Shown: positions 42,671 to 63,759 of the stretch, piece by piece
Layout of the letters: every line of letters starts with the position of its first letter
Numbering within the stretch: position 1 is the stretch's first letter
Assembly (NCBI GenBank): GCA_944384255.1
Contig: CALWSS010000012.1
Span: 3,398 to 67,397 of the forward strand
Origin: an uncultured Clostridia bacterium
GTDB taxonomy: Bacteria > Bacillota > Clostridia > Lachnospirales > Anaerotignaceae
Direction: 5' to 3'
DNA length: 64,000 nucleotides
Notes under the pieces: model-generated
Told to the model about the DNA's origin: nothing
Databases searched by the model: none
Seen by the model: the letters and a program-made list of their open reading frames with translations, nothing else
Program-made: the position numbers and the translations under genes

Positions 42671-43252
42671 CTATTCCTCCGAATTATCATTAAGCTCAAC
42701 AGTAAATTCTGTTACCCTGCTTATTCTTCTTGCCTTAGTTGACTCAAGCTCTATTGGTGTAACTCTGTAGCAAAGAGATGTTTTATAAGGCTTAGTTGTA
42801 TCGTTCCATAACTTCATTTTTTCTTCTGTATCTAAATTCAAAAGCTCTATTCTTATATCAGCACCCATGGTATCATTGCCGAATTCTTCTCCGCTTATTA
42901 TTGAATTATTGGATAATATCTGCATAACACGGCCTAAAATACGTTGTTCCTGAACAGCTCTGAATTTAATGTCACTGGCAGAATATGCCGTAATCATGTA
43001 GTACAGACTTAAAACAACAGGCGGAAATTTCTGCTGGTCATAGCTGTAGTTAACCATACCGCTTCTTTTAAAATCATTATTTTCTGCAATATCATATAAA
43101 TAAATGCCGACAGAAAAATCACCTTTTTCATCCGGTCCACAAAGGCCTATACCATTTTTGTCCGGTATCAAGTCCGGAACCATCCCGTCACAAAGCAAAC
43201 TGACTATTTTTTCGCTTATATCAGCAATAACAGTATACCTTCCCATAGGCAT
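42671..43252 (-). CDS. DUF4255 tail terminator/cap protein (Afp16/Pvc16-like)
   Basis: ..FSVGIYLYDIAENNDFKRSG...PPVVLSLYYMITAYS...EEKMKLWN....YKTSLCYRVTPIELE matches the Pvc16 N-terminal (DUF4255) pattern. Confidence 0.8.
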   Translation of the reverse strand: MPMGRYTVIADISEKIVSLLCDGMVPDLIPDKNGIGLCGPDEKGDFSVGIYLYDIAENNDFKRSGMVNYSYDQQKFPPVVLSLYYMITAYSASDIKFRAVQEQRILGRVMQILSNNSIISGEEFGNDTMGADIRIELLNLDTEEKMKLWNDTTKPYKTSLCYRVTPIELESTKARRISRVTEFTVELNDNSEE

Positions 43253-54424: not shown

Positions 54425-55198
54425 TTAATTTATTTTAACCATACTGCCCTTTATCTCGGTTATGCCGCTGGAGTTTATTTTTAAAGAGCCTTTTGAGTTT
54501 ACTTCCGTTGTGCTTCCCTTAATACTTACTGACTGGCCGTTAACTTTAAAATTCTGTTTAACGCTTATATCTACAGTGCCAGTGTTAACTGTTTCCTTAT
54601 CACTTTCCAGTGTAACCAGGGCCTTATTATTTACTTTAAGCTCTATTTTTTTATTGGCATTAAGCGAAATAGCGCCGTTTTTTGCATCTAAAACAATGCT
54701 GTTTTTGTTGTCCTTATCCGATATAGTCACATTGTTTTTTTCATCATCAATATTTATTTTCATTCCGGCTGGTGTTGTTATTTCAATAAACTGTTTTTTA
54801 TCCTCGTCAGAAAACTTTACCTGACTGCCGCCTTTTGTTTTTATTGTTTTAAATGTATTTTTCTCATTAGGCAAATCAGCCGGTATAGGGCTTTGTTTAT
54901 TCCATAATGAACCTATAACAACAGGCTTATCCCAGTTGCCCATTATAAAAGATATTACAACTTCCGTTCCTATCTCAGGCAAAAAGTATGAGCCGTAATC
55001 CTTACCGGAATAAAACGAAGCAACGGGAATCCAGCCGCTTTTGTTTTTCCCTTCTTCACCTGAATTGTATTCAACTTTAACCATTCCGGGATACTCTTTA
55101 TCATAATTTTCAAGCACTATTCCCGACACTAACCCCGGAGCTGTGGATGCTTTTTTTTCAACATTAAGCAGTTCATCAAAAAAATCCATTATTCCCAT
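54425..55198 (-). CDS. spike protein, gpV/gp5/VgrG-like (Afp8-like)
   Basis: N-terminal OB-like GLVSGIVLENYD..PGMVKVEY...SGWIPVA..YSG.DYG.YFLPEIGTEV. C-terminal repetitive beta-helix-like segment. 10-nt overlap with the gpD-like gene. Confidence 0.8.
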   Translation of the reverse strand: MGIMDFFDELLNVEKKASTAPGLVSGIVLENYDKEYPGMVKVEYNSGEEGKNKSGWIPVASFYSGKDYGSYFLPEIGTEVVISFIMGNWDKPVVIGSLWNKQSPIPADLPNEKNTFKTIKTKGGSQVKFSDEDKKQFIEITTPAGMKINIDDEKNNVTISDKDNKNSIVLDAKNGAISLNANKKIELKVNNKALVTLESDKETVNTGTVDISVKQNFKVNGQSVSIKGSTTEVNSKGSLKINSSGITEIKGSMVKIN

Positions 55199-56268
55199 CC
55201 CTCCGCAGTAAAGTTAGTTAAAAATCCGTTATAATTTATTGTGTGTGTTACATCTGTAATATAAAACTTTTTATTAACAAGGCTGTCAACACCGGAAATC
55301 TTTATAAACCTGCCCGGCACAATTTCCGGAAGGCCTATACATGTACCGTATGCCTTTTTATTCTCATTTTTTGCTTTTTCCGCCATACTCTTAGCCGCTT
55401 CATTGGCATCCGTCTGTGTTTTGCAGTCAGGAAGAGCCACTACTTCAACACCGGCTTTAATTACATTAACCTGATTATCACCATTTTTGGCAGTAGCTGA
55501 AGCAACAATATGAGTTTTAGTATCCGGGTTATAACCGTGCACTTCAAAAACTTTATTAAGGTAGTTTAAACTGCGGTTGAAGCTTTTAAGACCGCTGTTA
55601 ATTCCGAGGGTTATTACAGGTGTTTTAACGCTTTGAACTTTTCTGAAATATGCTTTATCTGCTACAATAAAAAACTCTCGGTCAACTCTGCCGCCTTCAA
55701 TAAGCTTTTTAGTAATAAAGTCGTAGTCCGATTCTCTTTGGCAGACAACATCTTTTAACTTGTCATCAGTTGCATCACAATCCAAAGAGCACAGTGCTGA
55801 ATAACGCGACATAATTTCTTTTACTATATCCGAATAGTTGGCTTTATTATATAAAATATATGGTTTATTGTCTGTCATCATAAGACGCCTTGCATCCATA
55901 GCCATAATAGTAAAAAATATGCCGTTTTCCACATCAAGCTGTATATCAACTGAGGCTATAAAGCCTTTAAACACCACAATTGAAGATGACATGTAACCAA
56001 GCTTTACCGTTACGGTTTTTCCCGGTGCTGCCTTATCTTTTAAAACACTGCTGAAACTGCTGTTTTCATAATCATATCCGCTGTTTACGGTAAATGATGC
56101 ACTTCCGGCGTTTTCAACAGAAAGCTTAACCTGAACTTGGTTTACTGATACACCTTTTTGTTCCAAAAGTGAAACACCGCCTATATTAAGCTCTACTTTT
56201 GGTGTTGTAAAATCGTCATATTTTTTTCTCAGCTCACTGTATGTATAGCTGCCATCCATTAATCCCAT
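55189..56268 (-). CDS. baseplate hub, phage late control protein D (gpD)-like (Afp7-like)
   Basis: 359 aa. ..V.V.LGY......VF.G.I... and ..QRESDYDFITKKLIEGG..FFIV..KAYF.. match the gpD pattern. Confidence 0.7.
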   Translation of the reverse strand: MGLMDGSYTYSELRKKYDDFTTPKVELNIGGVSLLEQKGVSVNQVQVKLSVENAGSASFTVNSGYDYENSSFSSVLKDKAAPGKTVTVKLGYMSSSIVVFKGFIASVDIQLDVENGIFFTIMAMDARRLMMTDNKPYILYNKANYSDIVKEIMSRYSALCSLDCDATDDKLKDVVCQRESDYDFITKKLIEGGRVDREFFIVADKAYFRKVQSVKTPVITLGINSGLKSFNRSLNYLNKVFEVHGYNPDTKTHIVASATAKNGDNQVNVIKAGVEVVALPDCKTQTDANEAAKSMAEKAKNENKKAYGTCIGLPEIVPGRFIKISGVDSLVNKKFYITDVTHTINYNGFLTNFTAEGWE

Positions 56269-56292: not shown

Positions 56293-56985
56293 TTAAAGTG
56301 CAGGAATTTTTAACACCTGTCCCGGATATATTTTAAGCGGGTTAAGAAGGCCATTTGCCTTTGCTATAACACGCCATTTTTCACAGTCGCCGTATTCTTC
56401 ATAAGCTATATTCCAAAGGCTTGTCCCTTCCAGAACCGTTCTGTATTTAGTTCTGTCCGGCGATTCAAAAGGCTCGGCTTTTTTTGTCAGGCCTTCTTCC
56501 TGTGCTTCTTTAATAGTTAAATCCATTTTAGCCCTAATAGGCTTGCCAAATGTATCAAACATGGTAAAAGTTTCCGTTACGGAAGTAATAACACCTTTAA
56601 AGCTTAAATTGCCCCATACAAAAGAAACAAGCGGCGGTTTATGGTCACTGCCTGAAACCTGAACGGCTGATGTTATTTTTTTCATTATATCCGTTACCGG
56701 CTTAACTGAACTGCTGGAGCTGAGCATTCCGGTAGCTATTCCAATTAAACTTTCGGAACGGCCCTTTTCACCTTCGCTGTCAAAAAAAAGTGTTGTGGTA
56801 AATTCCTTTTGTGCTCCGGATAAAAATACCATTCTTGATACATCCGTACCTAATGAATTGTCTTCTTTATAATTAGCAGTACTTTTTATTGTGTACTGTG
56901 ACGGGTTAAATGAGCACTCAACTTCTTCTTTGCTTTTGCCGTTATTTTTGTATATTATGATTTTGGCTTTTTTAAGCGTTCCCAT
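56293..56985 (-). CDS. tube-initiator-like protein with C-terminal LysM domain
   Basis: N-terminal KAKIIIY.....EEVECSFNPSQYTI resembles CIS tube-fold proteins. C-terminal YRTVLEGTSLWNIAYEEYGD..KWRVIAKANGL.NPLKIYPGQVLKIP is a LysM motif. Confidence 0.75.
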   Translation of the reverse strand: MGTLKKAKIIIYKNNGKSKEEVECSFNPSQYTIKSTANYKEDNSLGTDVSRMVFLSGAQKEFTTTLFFDSEGEKGRSESLIGIATGMLSSSSSVKPVTDIMKKITSAVQVSGSDHKPPLVSFVWGNLSFKGVITSVTETFTMFDTFGKPIRAKMDLTIKEAQEEGLTKKAEPFESPDRTKYRTVLEGTSLWNIAYEEYGDCEKWRVIAKANGLLNPLKIYPGQVLKIPAL

Positions 56986-57004
56986 ATTGGCTCAGCCGCC
57001 TTTC

Positions 57005-60000
57005 TTAAAGTCCTCTTCGCATTTTCTCAAGCCTTAGCTGTGACTGCATTTGATTCATTACTTTTTCAGCCACTACGGAAATATCGGTTATTTTGAGCAT
57101 CTGCTTTTGAGTAGTTAAAATATTTTCAATTTCTTTCTGCTGTGAGTTAATGCGCTTTGTAAGCTCATAAATGGTTTGTTTTTCCTTCTGCTGAAATTCT
57201 GTGCTTTTATTAAGCTTTATAATATCGTTTACCTGTGTTTTTACTGTCTGCTGAACCTGAGTTGATATATCCGGTATTTTAACCGGGCTGTTTACAGTAT
57301 TCTGAGCTTTGCTATTTTTTGCTATAACCAAATCAGCTGTTTTATACTGGTTTAGTTCATTTTCAGCAACACTTTTGTTATTGCGGTTAATTAAATTTGA
57401 TGTAAAATAATTGACATTTTCAGCTATTGAAGAATTTAAACTTTCATCAGTATAAACCGGATTTATATTATTTGGAAAATGTGTTTTGTTCATTATCTGA
57501 AACACGGTTTCTTGTGGATTTTGATATAAGTTTTCAAAAATTGTATCAGCAAAAGCATTTTCTTCCGCTGTACTTTTTTTCATAACTTTATTTCCAACTA
57601 CACTTCCAACTGTATTTCTAACTGTATTTCTAACTGCATTATTAACAATGTTCTGAAATCTATTTTGAACTGCATTTCTGTTTTCCGTGTTATAAACCCA
57701 ATTTATTATTCGTTTAATTGTTGCATTGTTTGCTTTTGTAATTTGAACATTAGACAATATTTTTTTCACATCACCGGTTTTATATGCTTCTTCCACTTTG
57801 TTTAATGAATTTGTATCAGCTTTTTCTGCCAAATCAGATATAATGGCATTTATTCTTTCATTTTGTGAAGCAAGCTTTATAAAACTGCCTGCATAGTCTT
57901 TATTATTTATAATTTTCCGTATAAACTCATCTTTTTGTTCTTCAAAAGACTGTTCATTATTTTTCTCAGGCTGACTTTTTACATTTTCCAAAACCGGTTT
58001 TAAATACTCAGCCTCATTTTGTGTGTTAATAAACGTTCTTATTTCATCCAACTGAGGTTTTGTAATATATTTCATCCAGTTTCCAAGTTTTTCTGAAACA
58101 TCAGTTGTATGTTCGTTTAAATATAAAGAAGTATTTTTTAATTTGTTATTATTTAAAAGATTGTTTTGAGTATTTCCATTGGATTTATTAATATTAGTTT
58201 TTCTATTCTCCGATGCTTTTAAGTCTACCCAGCCCGTTAGCTCTTTTTTTATTTCTTTGTTTTCAGCAAGTTTATTCAGTATATTTAAGCTCTGGATTTT
58301 ATTGTTTTTGATATACTCTATTACTTCTCGTTTTTCTGCCGAAAACTCCGGCTCCGTTTCCTGTTTTTTATTCTTTACTGTTTCAAGCAAAGGCCTTATG
58401 TATTCTGTTTCCTCACTTGCGGTAAGAACGGTCTTTACACTTTCCCACTGGGTTTCTGTTAAATATGTAATCCAGTCTGTAAGCTGTGTTGTTACGTTAT
58501 TTACTAATTCTCGGTTTTGGGTTATTTCTTCTGATTCTTTGTTTATTTCTGTTTTTTCATTTATATTGTTATTAACAGTTTTATTTTCTGTTGTTGTTTT
58601 CTTTTCTAATTCTTTTAAATCTACCCAGCCCGTTAGCTCTTTTTTTATTTCTTCGTTTTCAGCAAGTTTATTCAGTATATTTAAGCTCTGGGTTTTATTG
58701 TTTTTGATATACTCTATTACTTCTCGTTTTTCTGCCGAAAACTCAGGCTCCGTTTCCTGTTTTTTATTCTTTACCGTTTCAAGCAAAGGCCTTATGTATT
58801 CTGTTTCTTCGCTTGTTGTAAGAATGGTCTTTACACTTTCCCACTGGGTTTCTGTTAAATATGTTATCCAGTCTGTAAGCTGTGCCGATGTATTATTTAT
58901 TATTTCTCTGTTTTGAGTTATTTCTTCTGGACTTCTGTTTATTTCCGTTTTTTCATTTATATTGTTATTAACAGTTTTATTTACTGTTGTTGTTTTCTTT
59001 TCTAATACTTTTAAATTTACCCAGCCCGTTAGCTCTTTTTTTATTTCCTCGTTTTCGGTAAGTTTATGAAGTATATCTAAGCTCTGGGTTTTATTGTTTT
59101 TTATATACTCTATTACTTCTCGTTTTTCTGCTGAAAACTCAGGCTCGGTTTCCTGTTTTTTATTCTTTACCGTTTCAAGCAAAGGCTTTATATACTCCGT
59201 TTCTTTACTTGCGGTAAGAACGGTCTTTACTTCTTCCCACTGGCTTTCTGTTAAGTATGTTATCCAGTCTGTAAACTTAGATGATATTTCATTAATTTCA
59301 AGCTCAGAAACATTTATATTATTTAAATTATATTTATTAATTTCAGTTGATTTAACAGCTTCATTAACAATTGGTGCATAGTTGTTATTATAAATAAAAT
59401 TAATAAACTCCTGTTTTTCACTTTCCCACTTATCAAATGACTTATTTTCTCCAACCGTAGTTTTAAAAAACTGTTTTATAGTGTTTATATTATTATCAGT
59501 ACTATTTAAAAGAACAGTTTTAAAATTAAGCCACTGATTTTGTGTCATATCCAGTACATATCTTAAATTTTGGTTTTGCTTTATGTAGTTTTGCAGATTA
59601 ATGTTATCTTCTGCATTTTTAACATATAAAGACACTTGCGGAAGCACATTTTGCAAAAAAACACTCCACTGTTCTTTTGTCATTCTTTTAACTGAAGTAA
59701 TATCATACTCAGTCATTGAAACAGCTTTAAGAAACTCTTTTTGCTCATTTTCACCCATAGATTTATATATATTATAAAATTCATAGGCATCCTTCTGCCA
59801 AGGCTCTCTTTGAGCTGACGTAATTATATAATTTACAGGCTTAAAAAGGCTGTTTCCAGCAACAGAAATATTGCTTATTTTATTTGAATTATTTAACTTA
59901 TTTTCATACTTTTTTATATTGGACAAGTTAAAAACAGGCCTGTTGGCATAAGGCTTAAAACTATAATTATTAATCTGATTATTTATTTGTTTGTGATTGC

Positions 60001-60418
60001 TAATAATAGCTTCTGCTTTATTTTTAATGTTTTCAATGCGGCTGTTCCAGTAATCGGTTTTATTAATTAACCCGTCATTTAAAACAATTTCTGCAGTTTC
60101 TTTATAAATATTACTAATTATTTCTCTGCTGCTGCCCAAAACAGATTCTGATGCTGCTTTCAGTTCCTGAAGGAGCATACGTATTTCAAGCTTAACAAAA
60201 TACAGATTCCTGCTTTGTATGTCGTAATTAAAAATTTGTGATACCAAATTATAAACACGTTCTTCTTGGCCTAAAGAGTCCGGTTCTTTTTTTAATATCA
60301 AAGAAGGCTCAGGAAACATAAATATATTCCCGTTTTCTGCTGCTCTTGAAGAAAGTTCAATTATTGAAGGCGATATGAAATTAGTTATTTGAGATATATT
60401 ACGAGCAGTCGTTCTCAT
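57005..60418 (-). CDS. tape-measure-protein candidate (Afp14 position) with internal 132-aa tandem repeats
   Basis: 1137 aa, helical, Asn/Lys/Glu-rich. Located between the chaperone/tube genes and the baseplate hub, as in phage and eCIS loci. No enzymatic motif. Confidence 0.6.
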   Translation of the reverse strand: MRTTARNISQITNFISPSIIELSSRAAENGNIFMFPEPSLILKKEPDSLGQEERVYNLVSQIFNYDIQSRNLYFVKLEIRMLLQELKAASESVLGSSREIISNIYKETAEIVLNDGLINKTDYWNSRIENIKNKAEAIISNHKQINNQINNYSFKPYANRPVFNLSNIKKYENKLNNSNKISNISVAGNSLFKPVNYIITSAQREPWQKDAYEFYNIYKSMGENEQKEFLKAVSMTEYDITSVKRMTKEQWSVFLQNVLPQVSLYVKNAEDNINLQNYIKQNQNLRYVLDMTQNQWLNFKTVLLNSTDNNINTIKQFFKTTVGENKSFDKWESEKQEFINFIYNNNYAPIVNEAVKSTEINKYNLNNINVSELEINEISSKFTDWITYLTESQWEEVKTVLTASKETEYIKPLLETVKNKKQETEPEFSAEKREVIEYIKNNKTQSLDILHKLTENEEIKKELTGWVNLKVLEKKTTTVNKTVNNNINEKTEINRSPEEITQNREIINNTSAQLTDWITYLTETQWESVKTILTTSEETEYIRPLLETVKNKKQETEPEFSAEKREVIEYIKNNKTQSLNILNKLAENEEIKKELTGWVDLKELEKKTTTENKTVNNNINEKTEINKESEEITQNRELVNNVTTQLTDWITYLTETQWESVKTVLTASEETEYIRPLLETVKNKKQETEPEFSAEKREVIEYIKNNKIQSLNILNKLAENKEIKKELTGWVDLKASENRKTNINKSNGNTQNNLLNNNKLKNTSLYLNEHTTDVSEKLGNWMKYITKPQLDEIRTFINTQNEAEYLKPVLENVKSQPEKNNEQSFEEQKDEFIRKIINNKDYAGSFIKLASQNERINAIISDLAEKADTNSLNKVEEAYKTGDVKKILSNVQITKANNATIKRIINWVYNTENRNAVQNRFQNIVNNAVRNTVRNTVGSVVGNKVMKKSTAEENAFADTIFENLYQNPQETVFQIMNKTHFPNNINPVYTDESLNSSIAENVNYFTSNLINRNNKSVAENELNQYKTADLVIAKNSKAQNTVNSPVKIPDISTQVQQTVKTQVNDIIKLNKSTEFQQKEKQTIYELTKRINSQQKEIENILTTQKQMLKITDISVVAEKVMNQMQSQLRLEKMRRGL
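58088..59275. repeat. three near-identical 396-bp tandem repeats inside the tape-measure candidate
   Basis: Landmark CCAGTCTGT recurs at 58472, 58868 and 59264. Landmark [CT]TACCCAGCCCGTTAGCTC recurs at 58225, 58621 and 59017. The period is exactly 396 bp (132 codons). Degenerate copies flank both sides. Confidence 0.9.
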
Positions 60419-60443
60419 AAGAATTCCCTTCTTTAATATAAAT

Positions 60444-60857
60444 TTAAACCTCGATTAAGCCTGTATGGGATATTTCAATACGTCTTATAAAAACATCAGA
60501 CCTTAAAGCGTCAAGACCGTTTGTTTCCCATTTAGTAATTAAACCGTATTCAAAGGCATAAGTCTTAGCAATACTGCCATTATGCATAACCATTATAGTG
60601 CCTGCATTAACGGCCATTCCTACTTTAAGATTTATTTCCATGCTTGATGTCTGAACACCTTTTTCAAGGACTAAAGTGTCAAAAGAAGTTTTAGGCTTTC
60701 TCAGTATTCTTGGACTATCGTTATAGCCGCCTTCCTCAAGAGCTTCCATTTCTATATTGCCCGATATATTTGTAACTTTTGAAAAACTGAATACCAAGAG
60801 ATTAAGTGAAACTATAAAATTATTGTTTGTCACAATGGAATTTTGTACACTGCCCAT
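60444..60857 (-). CDS. tail tube protein paralogue (gp19-like, Afp5-like)
   Basis: ..NFIVSLN..VFSFSKVTNISG.IEMEALEEGG.N..P.IL.KP.....LVLEKG matches the phage T4 gp19-type tube pattern. Confidence 0.75.
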   Translation of the reverse strand: MGSVQNSIVTNNNFIVSLNLLVFSFSKVTNISGNIEMEALEEGGYNDSPRILRKPKTSFDTLVLEKGVQTSSMEINLKVGMAVNAGTIMVMHNGSIAKTYAFEYGLITKWETNGLDALRSDVFIRRIEISHTGLIEV

Positions 60858-60874
60858 TTTAAATGCCTCCGCTT

Positions 60875-61111
60875 TTAAATTTTAAACATATTTTCCGGTT
60901 CATCATTTAACTTTCGGTTTATACCGGAAATCTCATTACACCAGCGTACTCTTTCAAGATGGCTCATACTCATAATTTCATCATGACTCCAATGAACATA
61001 ATAAGCTATAAATGCCGCTTCCTCGTATATTTTATCTGCCGGATATGTTTTTATAGACCGGCTTGCATAAAATTTATAGGAACTTCTATCTCCTTTTTGC
61101 AGTGAGGACAT
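60875..61111 (-). CDS. small conserved CIS protein; possibly the -1 frame extension of the upstream chaperone-like ORF
   Basis: ..AFIAYYVHWSHDEIMSMSHLERVRWCNEISGINRKLN.. is a small-protein block I associate with eCIS loci. No good RBS before ATG 61111. Overlaps 61051..61434 by 61 nt. Confidence 0.5.
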   Translation of the reverse strand: MSSLQKGDRSSYKFYASRSIKTYPADKIYEEAAFIAYYVHWSHDEIMSMSHLERVRWCNEISGINRKLNDEPENMFKI

Positions 61112-61434
61112 ATAGCTTTATAAACCGGAAACTCCATAGTATTTATCCTCTGATATAAATCCTGGAGATATGCCAAATCCATAGTAAAAAGATTTTCAAT
61201 AACCCTTGTGTCAACAGCCGGCATAGAACCAAGTCTTGTTACAACACGGGCTAAAAGTATAATAGTTAGGTATCCCGGGTTTTGCTGAACTCTCGGGTCT
61301 TTAAGCGGAAGAATTTCGTCTGCTGCATTGGCAAGACGCATAGTGCCTTCTTTATGAATATTTCCGTCTTTATCTATGTAGCCCTTAGGCAGTACAAAAT
61401 CAAATTCTGTTTGAAAAGCCATTTTATATTTCAC
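61051..61434 (-). CDS. tail assembly chaperone-like protein
   Basis: 127 aa between tube and tape-measure genes. ..GTMRLANAADEILPLKDPRVQQNPGYLTIILLARVVTRLG......VIENLFTMDLAYLQDLY block. Confidence 0.5.
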   Translation of the reverse strand: MKYKMAFQTEFDFVLPKGYIDKDGNIHKEGTMRLANAADEILPLKDPRVQQNPGYLTIILLARVVTRLGSMPAVDTRVIENLFTMDLAYLQDLYQRINTMEFPVYKAICPHCKKEIEVPINFMQAGL

Positions 61435-61568: not shown

Positions 61569-61997
61569 TTACGATACTCTTGTCATACCTTCATGAACAA
61601 TCTCAAGTGTTTCGATTGCTATTTCAGAAGCTGAAGCATTAAAGTCCGGTGCTGTATATTTTGTAGGCCATGCATTTATTATCTGCCATGAAGCAGCCGG
61701 AGCCTGTGTTTCGTTTAATAATGTAATAGTAAGAGTTTTACGCTCAATTTCACCGTTTATGCCTGTTGTTATCCAGTCATATAATACTCTTGAATCTGTA
61801 ACACCCTGTTTTAAAGTTATGTTTCCATATTTTTTAAGACCTGTTACTTTCATAGGTGTTTCAGCCGTCATGTCGCCTTCTCTATATTCAATAGGCTCGA
61901 TTGTAGCATCAAAGCCTGTAACTTCTGAAAAGCCGCCGGCCTCCAAGCCGTCAATTTCAACCTTATATCTAAATTTTGCCTGAGGATAGCCTGCCAT
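61569..61997 (-). CDS. tail tube protein (Afp1-like, gp19 family)
   Basis: KFRYKVEIDGLEAGGFSEVTGFDATIEPIEYREGD.. is the canonical CIS/phage tube N-terminus; 142 aa. Confidence 0.9.
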   Translation of the reverse strand: MAGYPQAKFRYKVEIDGLEAGGFSEVTGFDATIEPIEYREGDMTAETPMKVTGLKKYGNITLKQGVTDSRVLYDWITTGINGEIERKTLTITLLNETQAPAASWQIINAWPTKYTAPDFNASASEIAIETLEIVHEGMTRVS

Positions 61998-62028: not shown

Positions 62029-63759
62029 TTATTCTGCATCTGCTGTTTTCTGAGAAATACGGAATATTACAAATTCTGCCGGTTTTACAGGTGCTACACC
62101 TATAACACAGATAAGTCTTCCGTTATCAATATCGTCTTGGCTCATTGTATCTCTGCCTATATGAACAAAAAATGCTTCTTCTGGAGAAGTACCGGCAAGA
62201 GAACCGCCTCTCCAAAGATTTGTTAAAAATACACTTATTGTTCTTTGTACTCTTACCCAAAGCACCTCGTCATTAGGCTCAAAAACAGCCCAGTTTGTAT
62301 TTGCTTTAATTGATTCTTCAATAAATATAAAAAGTCTACGTACATTTATGTATTTCCAGCTGCTGTTGCTTGTTGCAGTTCTTGCACCCCAAACACGTAT
62401 ACCCTGTCCTGCAAAAGCTCTGATAAGGTTAACACCCTTAGGGTTAAGTATATCCTGCTCGCCTGTGTTAAACTGGCACTCAAGACCTATACAGCCTCTA
62501 ACTACTTCGTTTGCAGGAGCTTTATGCACACCTCTTGTATTGTCGCTTCTTGCATAAATTCCAAGTATTGAGCCTGAAGGCGGTATTGAAATGTTTTTCT
62601 TATCAAGTGGGTCAAAAACCTTGAGCCATGGATGATAAAGAGCTGCATAATTTGTATCAAATATATTTCTGTGAGCTATAATATCTTCTACTTTTTTGGC
62701 ATCTTTCGGAATATCAAGTACGGCAAATCTGCTGCCTGTGTTTTCACAGTGTGCCACAAGTGTGAGCTGAACGTTAGGGTCAGTAACACCCGGTACAGCT
62801 ATTAATGAAACAACATCGTTATCCAAAAATGCCTGTATACCAGTTCTGCTGCCTGCACCTTTATCCTCACCTATAAAGTCTGCTGCTGAAATGTTTGATA
62901 CACTGCCGTTGCTTCCGCCTGAAAATACAGCTGAGCCTACGGATTCTTCTTTACCTGCAAGCTGCTCAAAAGGCGGCTCAACTGCTTTGTTGTCGCCTAA
63001 ATAATGTACTTCTACCAAGTCGGACTTAGCCATTTTCTTATCAACGTAGTTAGGTGCCTCTACATTAAAAGACATCTGGTCGTAAAACTCAACTATTTCG
63101 TTGAAGCTTACTTCCATTGCAAATTCACATGTTGATATAATTTTTGTTGGAAGTATAGATTTATCAACAACATCAATGTCAAATTCCTTTTCAAAAGAAA
63201 TTACATTGTCGCGGCTGTTAACTACTTTATTATACACAATTTCTGTGCCGTCTGTATACATTACAACATCTCCGGCATAAAAACCTGCTCCGTTTTTAAC
63301 AAGATATTTATTGCCTTCGTTTGTTTCAATAACTTCTAATATCTGTGTTTTAGCCTTGCTTGAAGGTGTTACTACAACACGGATATTATTGCCCCACATA
63401 CCCGGGTTTTTAGCTGTAAGCTGTAAAACAGCCTCATCTTTATTAGGCATAAAGCCTGTAGCACATGCTGCATCCTGAGGTGCAACCCTGCAAACGAAAC
63501 ATCTTGAGCCGCCGTTTAAAAAGAACTGCTCTACTGCATAAGCTAAATAACGGTATTCTCCAAACTCGTTTTCAGAAAGATAACCTCCATAAATTCTGTG
63601 AAAATTAGCCGGGTTTGTAACAAGCTGCGGCACACCTTCAACAGGGCCTCTTTCCGCAAGGCCTATAAAACCTGCTGTACTTGTGCTAACGCCTTCCATA
63701 GGTTTAGAACCGGATTCAAATTCCTCCACATATACTCCTGGTGACAAATATTCAGCCAT
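62029..63759 (-). CDS. contractile tail sheath protein (Afp2-4-like)
   Basis: MAEYLSPGVYVEEFESGSKPMEGVSTSTAGFIG start and C-terminal ..VNLIRAFAGQGIRVWGARTA.....WKYINVRRL block typical of phage/CIS sheaths. Confidence 0.95.
   Translation of the reverse strand: MAEYLSPGVYVEEFESGSKPMEGVSTSTAGFIGLAERGPVEGVPQLVTNPANFHRIYGGYLSENEFGEYRYLAYAVEQFFLNGGSRCFVCRVAPQDAACATGFMPNKDEAVLQLTAKNPGMWGNNIRVVVTPSSKAKTQILEVIETNEGNKYLVKNGAGFYAGDVVMYTDGTEIVYNKVVNSRDNVISFEKEFDIDVVDKSILPTKIISTCEFAMEVSFNEIVEFYDQMSFNVEAPNYVDKKMAKSDLVEVHYLGDNKAVEPPFEQLAGKEESVGSAVFSGGSNGSVSNISAADFIGEDKGAGSRTGIQAFLDNDVVSLIAVPGVTDPNVQLTLVAHCENTGSRFAVLDIPKDAKKVEDIIAHRNIFDTNYAALYHPWLKVFDPLDKKNISIPPSGSILGIYARSDNTRGVHKAPANEVVRGCIGLECQFNTGEQDILNPKGVNLIRAFAGQGIRVWGARTATSNSSWKYINVRRLFIFIEESIKANTNWAVFEPNDEVLWVRVQRTISVFLTNLWRGGSLAGTSPEEAFFVHIGRDTMSQDDIDNGRLICVIGVAPVKPAEFVIFRISQKTADAE

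Follow-up and report, generated by a model that had tools for sequence, protein, structure and literature searches.

What determines the length of a contractile injection system in gut Clostridia, and can a gene built in large part from tandem repeats change that length within a species? Both questions are raised by a 64,000-nucleotide (nt) stretch of DNA, hereafter the window, from an uncultured Clostridia bacterium of the Anaerotignaceae (GenBank assembly GCA_944384255.1, contig CALWSS010000012.1, positions 3,398 to 67,397). The minus strand of the window carries a complete contractile-injection operon of the extracellular contractile injection system (eCIS) type. Within it, between the genes for a second tube-like protein (tube2) and a LysM tube initiator, lies P0001 (57005..60418, minus strand), an open frame of 1137 amino acids (aa) and the candidate tape measure protein (TMP), or ruler, of the system. 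We put at roughly three in four the probability that P0001 is the tape measure of the contractile injection system of this chicken-gut Clostridia bacterium. Since its product matches no known sequence family, the assignment rests on the position of the gene, the architecture of the protein and its comparative behavior among relatives, and on these grounds P0001 is very probably a ruler.

Architecture of P0001 and its repeat array

The first-pass annotation of the window described P0001 as a tape-measure candidate holding an in-frame tandem array of exact 396-nt period at 58088-59275, and both the period and the span of the array hold. The 1137 codons are free of stops and the frame stays open throughout the array. 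Tandem Repeats Finder (TRF) returns 58216-59274 with a period of 396, 2.7 copies, 92% matches, 0% indels and a score of 1780, and a scan of all in-frame offsets of P0001 places the highest self-identity at 396 nt (0.465) and 792 nt (0.407), over a background of ~0.34. With the register of the repeat unit, here called M2, fixed at its [FL]TDW motif, units start at aa 382, 514, 646 and 778, a spacing of exactly 132 aa, and this register reproduces the array coordinates to the nucleotide.

Each unit consists of a 93-codon core, predicted helical, followed by a 39-codon spacer rich in Asn, Thr and Lys. Unit 0 (aa 382-513; 58880..59275, minus strand, as are all features below unless otherwise stated) scores 138 bits against the hidden Markov model (HMM) of the unit. 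Unit 1 (aa 514-645; 58484..58879) shares 89% nt identity with unit 0, and unit 2 (aa 646-777; 58088..58483) joins a conserved core, 94% nt identical to that of unit 1, to an unrelated spacer. To call these units near-identical, as was initially done, overstates their likeness: per 396 nt, they differ at 43 positions between units 0 and 1, 84 between units 1 and 2, and 101 between units 0 and 2 (75-89% nt identity), and the longest identical runs between them measure 39-52 nt. The cores are 88-94% identical at the nt level, and spacer identity is 85% between units 0 and 1 and 42% for unit 2, which matches the others in its 93-codon core only.

Degenerate copies had also been proposed on both sides of the array. 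The downstream one is clear, a fourth M2 unit (aa 778-862; 57833..58087) with LGNWMKYITKPQLDEI.. and LGNWMKYITKPQL.. that scores 51 bits. The upstream stretch QNQWLNFKTVLL.. (aa 291-362; 59333..59548) is weakly M2-like at 13 bits, and it occupies the same place in all lineages of the family. A further supposed copy, KEQWSVFLQNVL, belongs instead to a distinct 67-aa module, M1 (aa 207-273; 59600..59800), with the pattern WQKD..YKSM..EK.FL..S.TE..S...MTKEQW.VFL, which is present once in P0001 and scores 110 bits against an HMM derived from 15 copies. Homology between M1 and M2 was considered and rejected, hhalign giving a probability of 3% over 10 columns, with a T-x-x-Q-W motif as the only common feature.

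Both ends of P0001 are conserved. The N-terminal region (aa 1-206; 59801..60418; MRTTARNISQIT.., FPEPS.., NYD..YF.KLE) contains columns that are invariant among 11 homologues, and the C-terminal region (aa 1005-1137; 57008..57406; ..TADLVIAK..PKIPD..KQMLKITDISVVAEKVMNQMQSQLRLEKMRRGL) holds the densest run of such columns. In the C-terminal third of the protein, a 12-nt micro-repeat encoding (V/A)RNT about five times (aa 927-947; 57578..57640; TRF period 12, 5.2 copies) is also length-variable, P0094, a strain of the same cluster, being 8 aa shorter there. Two antisense open reading frames (ORFs) inside the array, at 58179-58916 (plus strand, 245 aa) and 59094-59381 (plus strand, 95 aa), are most likely by-products of repeated, stop-poor sequence and are not supported as genes.

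Supplied with an alignment of 11 sequences, AlphaFold2 predicts helices only for P0001, and no strands. The predicted local distance difference test score (pLDDT) reaches 72-84 over the module cores and is low over the spacers and the ends; the model of the whole protein, with a pLDDT of 56 and a predicted template modeling score (pTM) of 0.25, was considered too poor for a fold search. A single M2 unit, modeled from an alignment of 26 units, forms seven short helices (pLDDT 84.7, pTM 0.75). P0001 has no transmembrane or hydrophobic segment and few Pro or Gly residues. It is long, predicted to be predominantly alpha-helical and devoid of significant Pfam or NCBIfam domains, a combination that characterizes TMPs.

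A family of variable length on constant tail parts

Word-indexed and exhaustive searches recovered a small family, with 20 representatives of clusters at 90% identity and no more than 28 hits in a set of 1.84 billion representatives at 50% identity. Every member is from gut Clostridia, namely uncultured Clostridia, metagenome-assembled genomes of Lachnospiraceae and Anaerotignum lactatifermentans DSM 14214, and the RefSeq name of one of them is 'hypothetical protein' (WP_303025631.1). The homologues span 678-1709 aa, lengths that are accounted for by the counts of modules M1 and M2 as detected with their HMMs. In lineage A, which comprises the window and P0002-P0004, proteins of ~1135-1145 aa contain one M1, three full M2 units and the old degenerate M2 downstream. 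Lineage B, with forms of 678, 800, 849 and 922 aa, also has a single M1, combined with 1, 2, ~2.4 and 3 full M2 units, respectively, and with no degenerate copy downstream. Lineage C (1413-1709 aa) contains three to five M1 copies and two to three full M2 units, and weaker degenerate copies are present downstream. P0001 had been judged long for an eCIS ruler, which is true beside Alg14 (526 aa) or the diffocin protein CD1366 (817 aa), but its 1137 aa are mid-range in its own family.

In the long relatives (L005 6001-10689, which is A. lactatifermentans DSM 14214, and P0008, P0010, P0013, P0020 and P0022), M1 is amplified to three to five copies of the form W.KD..Y.SM..EK..FL..S.TE...MTKEQWEVFLTN..PLISSYVKKQE, arranged in super-units of ~147-280 aa. 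The 1709-aa form equals the 1562-aa forms plus exactly one 147-aa super-unit.

Across the 11 homologues, the N-terminal ~200 aa and the C-terminal ~130 aa are near-invariant and the middle is variable; the invariant N-terminal residues include M1 (here the residue, not the module), T3, A5, I8, Q10, T12, P17, F35, P36, P38, K44 and E45. Distant relatives of 888-1312 aa keep only the two ends, between which they carry their own W-x2-[YF]-L-E-P-x2-W repeats, and three of them (P0036/38/40) begin with the same N-terminal start. The parts surrounding the ruler candidate are constant in size across lineages (sheath 576 aa, tube 142, tube2 137) or nearly so (LysM protein 229-231 aa, spike 254-257, gp25 139-142), and synteny is the same in the window, in lineage B and in A. 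lactatifermentans DSM 14214. On these constant tail parts the ruler candidate of lineage B measures 800-922 aa and that of A. lactatifermentans DSM 14214 has 1562 aa. Gain and loss of modules has thus given rulers of 678-1709 aa in related species, with the other tail parts unchanged. A ruler would be expected to show this pattern, a single component whose length varies 2.5-fold between conserved ends while the chassis around it stays constant, and conserved ends around a length-variable interior are a mark of TMPs.

Position points the same way. P0001 occupies the tape-measure slot of P2- and diffocin-type clusters, between the tube and chaperone genes on one side and the baseplate hub genes on the other, and this order is kept in lineages B and C. 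No other plausible ruler was found in the operon, where the other large ORFs match baseplate, MORN, HAMP or ATPase families, or none. The original choice of P0001 as tape-measure candidate is therefore upheld by its position, the chaperone-like ORF nearby, the all-alpha prediction and the conserved ends around a variable middle; it is the sole and best candidate of the operon.

The operon reads, in order, sheath, tube, chaperone-like ORF, DUF6760, tube2, P0001, LysM tube initiator, gpD hub, spike and gp25, followed by two large baseplate genes, a P2_I-like protein, and then a Pvc16-like cap, DUF4280 and an AAA ATPase. Upstream of P0001 lie the genes for the 576-aa sheath protein (62029..63759; PF04984, PF17482), the 142-aa tube protein (61569..61997; PF06841, E=5e-45), a 127-aa ORF resembling tail assembly chaperones (61051..61434; PHROG 508 'tail assembly chaperone', E=2.5e-6), an overlapping DUF6760 ORF (60875..61111; PF20546, E=6e-18) and the 137-aa tube2 (60444..60857; PF06841, E=1.8e-9). 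The two overlapping ORFs fit possible frameshift partners, which would make a chaperone pair of the G/GT or E/E' type. Downstream of P0001 are the 230-aa tube initiator, with CIS_tube and LysM domains (56293..56985; PF19266 E=1e-34, LysM), the 359-aa gpD-like baseplate hub (55189..56268; PF05954, PF24032) and the 257-aa spike with a gpV/VgrG OB domain (54425..55198; PF04717, E=1e-19). Of the two large baseplate genes, one matches Baseplate_J and the other has no family match. The Pvc16-like cap or terminator (193 aa; 42671..43252; PF14065, E=1e-27) lies further along.

Just upstream of the sheath gene, lineage B (L008; L011 1-2284) encodes a chemotaxis-type sensor of dCache-HAMP-MCPsignal architecture and a LytTR regulator, and L012, a close relative of the window, has an AAA/nSTAND-like gene in that place. 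In two chicken-gut 'metagenomic RNA-Seq' runs (X21/X22), a few 151-nt contigs match window positions 56553-61093 at 99-100% identity, in the genes for the ruler candidate, tube2, the chaperone region and the LysM protein. These contigs are compatible with transcription of the operon in vivo, of which they are weak evidence, as carry-over of DNA is possible.

The single match of the M2 unit model in BFVD is A0A8S5LDW9, a family member of 1124 aa with 45% identity to the unit. This protein is filed in UniProt as 'Myoviridae sp. ctB7y8', and virome studies probably assign such eCIS clusters from gut Clostridia to phage bins. P0003 and P0004 carry a precomputed label, PF27445.1. Several other leads were discarded. 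Small matches to DUF7071, RelB antitoxin, AprA_N and HigB are below threshold and due to chance, the 'tail fiber' PHROG matches of P0036 are located in a Gly/Ala low-complexity stretch, and P0037, a 1557-aa eukaryote-like repeat protein, is unrelated and has only a YLTWLxxEQK-like motif in common with the family.

Exchange between units, copy number and the alternatives

In a maximum-likelihood tree of unit cores, the full units of lineages A and B group by lineage and not by position in the gene: the units of these two lineages evolve in concert. The degenerate fourth unit and the units of lineage C group by position in the same tree, and the degenerate unit is old because it clusters by position across genomes. 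An exchange can be seen directly by comparison with the closest strain, L012, 96% identical to the window, in which the flanks of the gene are 97.8-99.0% nt identical to those of the window. The core of unit 1 in the window differs at 8 of 279 nt from unit 2 of L012 and at 25 of 279 nt from unit 1 of L012, and the spacers are orthologous, so that the middle core was converted in one of the two strains. M2 units thus exchange sequence, by gene conversion or unequal exchange, and P0001 combines in-frame tandem units with evidence of exchange in the manner of recombination-driven TMP arrays.

Copy number tells another part of the story. The 90% cluster of the window comprises, besides P0001, the assemblies of P0002 (on a 34-kb contig), P0090, P0094 and P0091, and all five have three full M2 units and one degenerate unit, as do P0003 and P0004 at 65% identity. 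The module counts (M1+M2) are similarly uniform elsewhere, at 5+2 in 12/12 full-length members of the 1709-aa cluster, 4+2 in 13/13 sequences of A. lactatifermentans and 4+2 in 9/9 members of the 1566-aa cluster. A comparison of copy number among strains, suggested at the outset, accordingly reveals differences in module number among related species and invariance within the species of the window, where none of the five assemblies departs from three units. The exceptions are few. P0015 and P0060 have four M1 copies in a species with five, and L013, a relative of P0004 on a 3.4-kb scaffold, is the only two-unit allele in the wider lineage of the window; its segment 85-90 contains an in-frame TAG where P0004 has Tyr, and L013 is either a pseudogene or a low-quality scaffold. 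Other short members, of 1210, 1278, 1081, 1096, 875, 712 and 739 aa, were considered as module-deletion alleles and rejected as truncations due to frameshifts, alternative starts or contig ends, P0060 being the one shorter member that is not a truncation.

The sister lineage B may be different. The middle unit of its 922-aa forms is missing from its 800-aa forms, and the haplotypes of the flanks segregate perfectly with length, INMR with 922 aa and INMK and MDIR with 800 aa or less, which argues for heritable alleles. The units of this lineage share identical runs of 117-199 nt that short-read assemblers can skip, and the contigs behind its 678-aa and 849-aa forms are short or of low coverage. 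On balance, we lean toward a real polymorphism of two versus three units in lineage B. Variation in the lineage with the longest identical tracts, and none in that of the window with tracts of 39-52 nt, would fit homologous recombination.

Could the three units of the window themselves be the product of tandem-repeat collapse or expansion during assembly? The window apparently derives from a metagenome-derived genome, the public runs that match it are all metagenomes from chicken or other guts, no Nanopore or PacBio run was found for the stretch, and the four best-matching DNA runs (chicken gut metagenomes) yield Logan contigs of depth 2-5 in pieces of 150-700 nt that are uninformative on copy number. 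An artefact is nevertheless highly improbable, because the units can be distinguished at short-read scale: with 43-101 differences per 396 nt and at most 52 identical nt in a row, reads of 150 nt resolve them. The open frame across the whole array and the recurrence of the same arrangement, three units and a degenerate fourth, in the four other assemblies of the cluster and in two relatives at 65% identity argue likewise. A chicken-gut contig of run X4 joins 58890 back to 58498, an offset of 393 nt; it marks the boundary between two units in a strain whose middle unit has 131 aa, as in L012/P0002. The first-pass annotation went further and saw in the array a possible length-variation module, in which recombination between units would change the predicted tail length in discrete steps. 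In its strong form this would be an active contingency locus, at which frequent unequal recombination would give discrete particle lengths within a species or even a population. That the units recombine was borne out, both by their concerted evolution and by the converted unit between 96%-identical strains, and near-identical lineage B genes with 1, 2, ~2.4 and 3 units, in which flank haplotypes segregate with copy number, the rare four-copy M1 forms of the 1709-aa cluster and the two-unit allele L013 near P0004 could all be read in its favor. The notion of switching fares less well, and we regard it as improbable: unit number is fixed in every assembly of the species and full-length members of three other clusters are equally uniform, relatives at 65% identity still have three units, tracts of 39-52 nt are poor substrates for exchange, the longer tracts of lineage B are open to assembly error, the 678-aa, 849-aa and P0015 forms come from low-coverage and/or Logan-built contigs, and L013 is interrupted by a stop. 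Because unit number is fixed at three in this species, the array sets a length particular to the species and does not serve to switch between lengths; the pattern resembles that of a ruler length fixed in the species and altered over the time scale of speciation.

A further objection is that P0001 may not be a ruler at all but another protein of the tube lumen or of assembly, such as a scaffold, an adaptor that docks cargo or an effector that is ejected; its folded M2 domains would then bind cargo or target structures, with length set by other means. Several observations weigh against a tape measure. The injection system and its candidate ruler are known here from genes alone. Neither P0001 nor 10 of its relatives matched a known TMP family in Pfam, PHROGs or NCBIfam, no membership of an Afp14-, gp29- or PF10145-type sequence family was found, P0001 had no match in the PDB by sequence and no chain at E<=10 by profile, tblastn found no match in phage genomes, and the M2 unit model had no PDB fold match at E<=0.001. 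The M2 core is modeled, with high confidence, as a compact folded domain and not as a long coiled coil; in contrast to P2 and lambda, a second tube-like gene separates the chaperone-like ORFs from P0001; and unit periods vary by lineage (120, 122, 132-134 and 147 aa), so that no fixed quantum tied to the rise of a tube ring is evident. Furthermore, Chen et al. (2019, PMC6899500) report that lineage II eCIS generally lack Afp14 homologues and carry subtype-specific genes without identified functional domains, and a TMP-related effector has been reported for a Streptomyces contractile injection system (PMC11126660). These points are met by the position of P0001 and its chaperone-like neighbor, which are those of a TMP, by conserved termini around a freely variable middle, the signature of a TMP, and by the lack of another ORF in the operon plausible as a ruler. 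The TMP of diffocin, too, contains a 'predicted globular domain', whose short helices run linearly along the lumen. A role other than that of ruler is consequently unlikely, and the tape measure remains our preferred interpretation of P0001.

Likely mode of action and significance of the family

In phage lambda, tail length follows TMP length when gpH is shortened by deletions or extended by duplications. The Afp14 gene is located near the ATPase gene at the end of its cluster and not between the tube and baseplate genes.

Of the characterized systems, diffocin, the R-type bacteriocin of Clostridioides difficile, offers several parallels. Its TMP, CD1366, is an 817-aa helical trimer that spans 1388 A of lumen, or 0.170 nm/aa, with C-terminal helices (residues 795-817) on the spike, the N-terminus at the collar, and a 'globular' domain of short helices that runs linearly in the lumen (PMC11329794). 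Like P0001 (in its predicted structure), CD1366 is nearly all alpha-helical; both belong to Gram-positive Clostridia, and their genes share one position, with those for sheath, tube and chaperones ahead and the LysM-type and hub genes behind; the M2 cores of P0001, as predicted, resemble its short-helix domain. The two proteins share no detectable sequence similarity, and P0001 differs from CD1366 in its long tandem modules, in having no predicted transmembrane helices where CD1366 has five, and in its cluster, which is of the eCIS type with an AAA ATPase, a Pvc16 cap and DUF4280 and does not encode an R-type bacteriocin.

Among eCIS, engineered duplication or deletion of internal Alg14 helices lengthens or shortens AlgoCIS by 0.229 nm/aa and changes its cargo load, and the slope across contractile injection systems is 0.216 nm/aa (preprint 10.64898/2026.05.27.728243); Afp14 is reported to be implicated in the length of the Serratia Afp (Rybakova 2015). 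Alg14 and Afp14 are eCIS rulers, as P0001 would be, and have in common with it mixed termini and a variable helical middle. They differ from P0001 in that homology is undetectable, Alg14 has 526 aa, and the cited papers report no natural tandem-module series for them. In phages, tandem-repeat tape measures that gain or lose units are well known (PMC3271669; PMC13585406), for example the 11-aa units of mycobacteriophages (Belcaid 2011, PMC3271669) and the tape-measure repeats reported for TP901-1 (Mahony 2016). The P0001 family resembles them in that length varies by duplication or loss of in-frame units. It departs from them in its much longer 132-aa units, each of which resembles a folded helical domain with a spacer after it, in a copy number that is fixed within species, and in its setting, which is a gut-Clostridia eCIS where theirs is a phage.

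If P0001 works as its counterparts in phage tails, diffocin and AlgoCIS do, it would act as a chaperone-coated, all-helical oligomer, probably a trimer. Its invariant C-terminal helices would anchor to the hub and spike, as residues 795-817 of CD1366 do, and tube and sheath would polymerize around it. Growth would end at the conserved N-terminal end of P0001, where the Pvc16-like cap would bind; the conserved N-terminal region may accordingly be the docking end on the side of the cap or of the chaperone. The interior would be assembled from two kinds of module, with one M1, three 132-aa M2 units and one old degenerate M2 in the protein of the window. Each M2 unit would then lengthen the particle by ~20-30 nm and might also provide more room for cargo in the lumen. 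At 0.15-0.17 nm/aa, a unit would correspond to ~20-22 nm, P0001 to ~170-195 nm and the family to a range of ~100 to 290 nm, and at ~0.22-0.23 nm/aa a unit would correspond to ~28-30 nm and P0001 to ~245-260 nm. The coefficient is uncertain because the unit cores are modeled as compact and may stay folded.

What is already known is that repeats in tape measures change tail length in phages, and that engineered eCIS rulers behave likewise. What is new is an unannotated family confined to gut Clostridia, with long and apparently folded modules and species-specific lengths that cover a 2.5-fold range. More tentatively, gut Clostridia may use two kinds of folded helical module, gained or lost in a ruler family not recognized before, to adjust how long their injection machines are and, along with this, how much cargo the lumen can take; the outcome would be a natural series from ~100 to ~290 nm (678-1709 aa) on a chassis that is otherwise constant. 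The M2 module could in addition offer a docking site in the lumen, and its copy number would then determine cargo stoichiometry along with length.

Recognition of this family would fill the ruler slot of the systems of Clostridia and Lachnospiraceae in which Afp14 homologues were reported absent (PMC6899500). It also brings to light a natural length series in which identical sheath, tube and baseplate parts go with one to three M2 units and one to five M1 modules; a culturable strain, A. lactatifermentans DSM 14214, carries one of its members. These natural alleles would allow ruler length to be tested against particle length and cargo load, as in the AlgoCIS preprint, and the modules themselves could serve as ready-made length spacers for the engineering of contractile injection systems.

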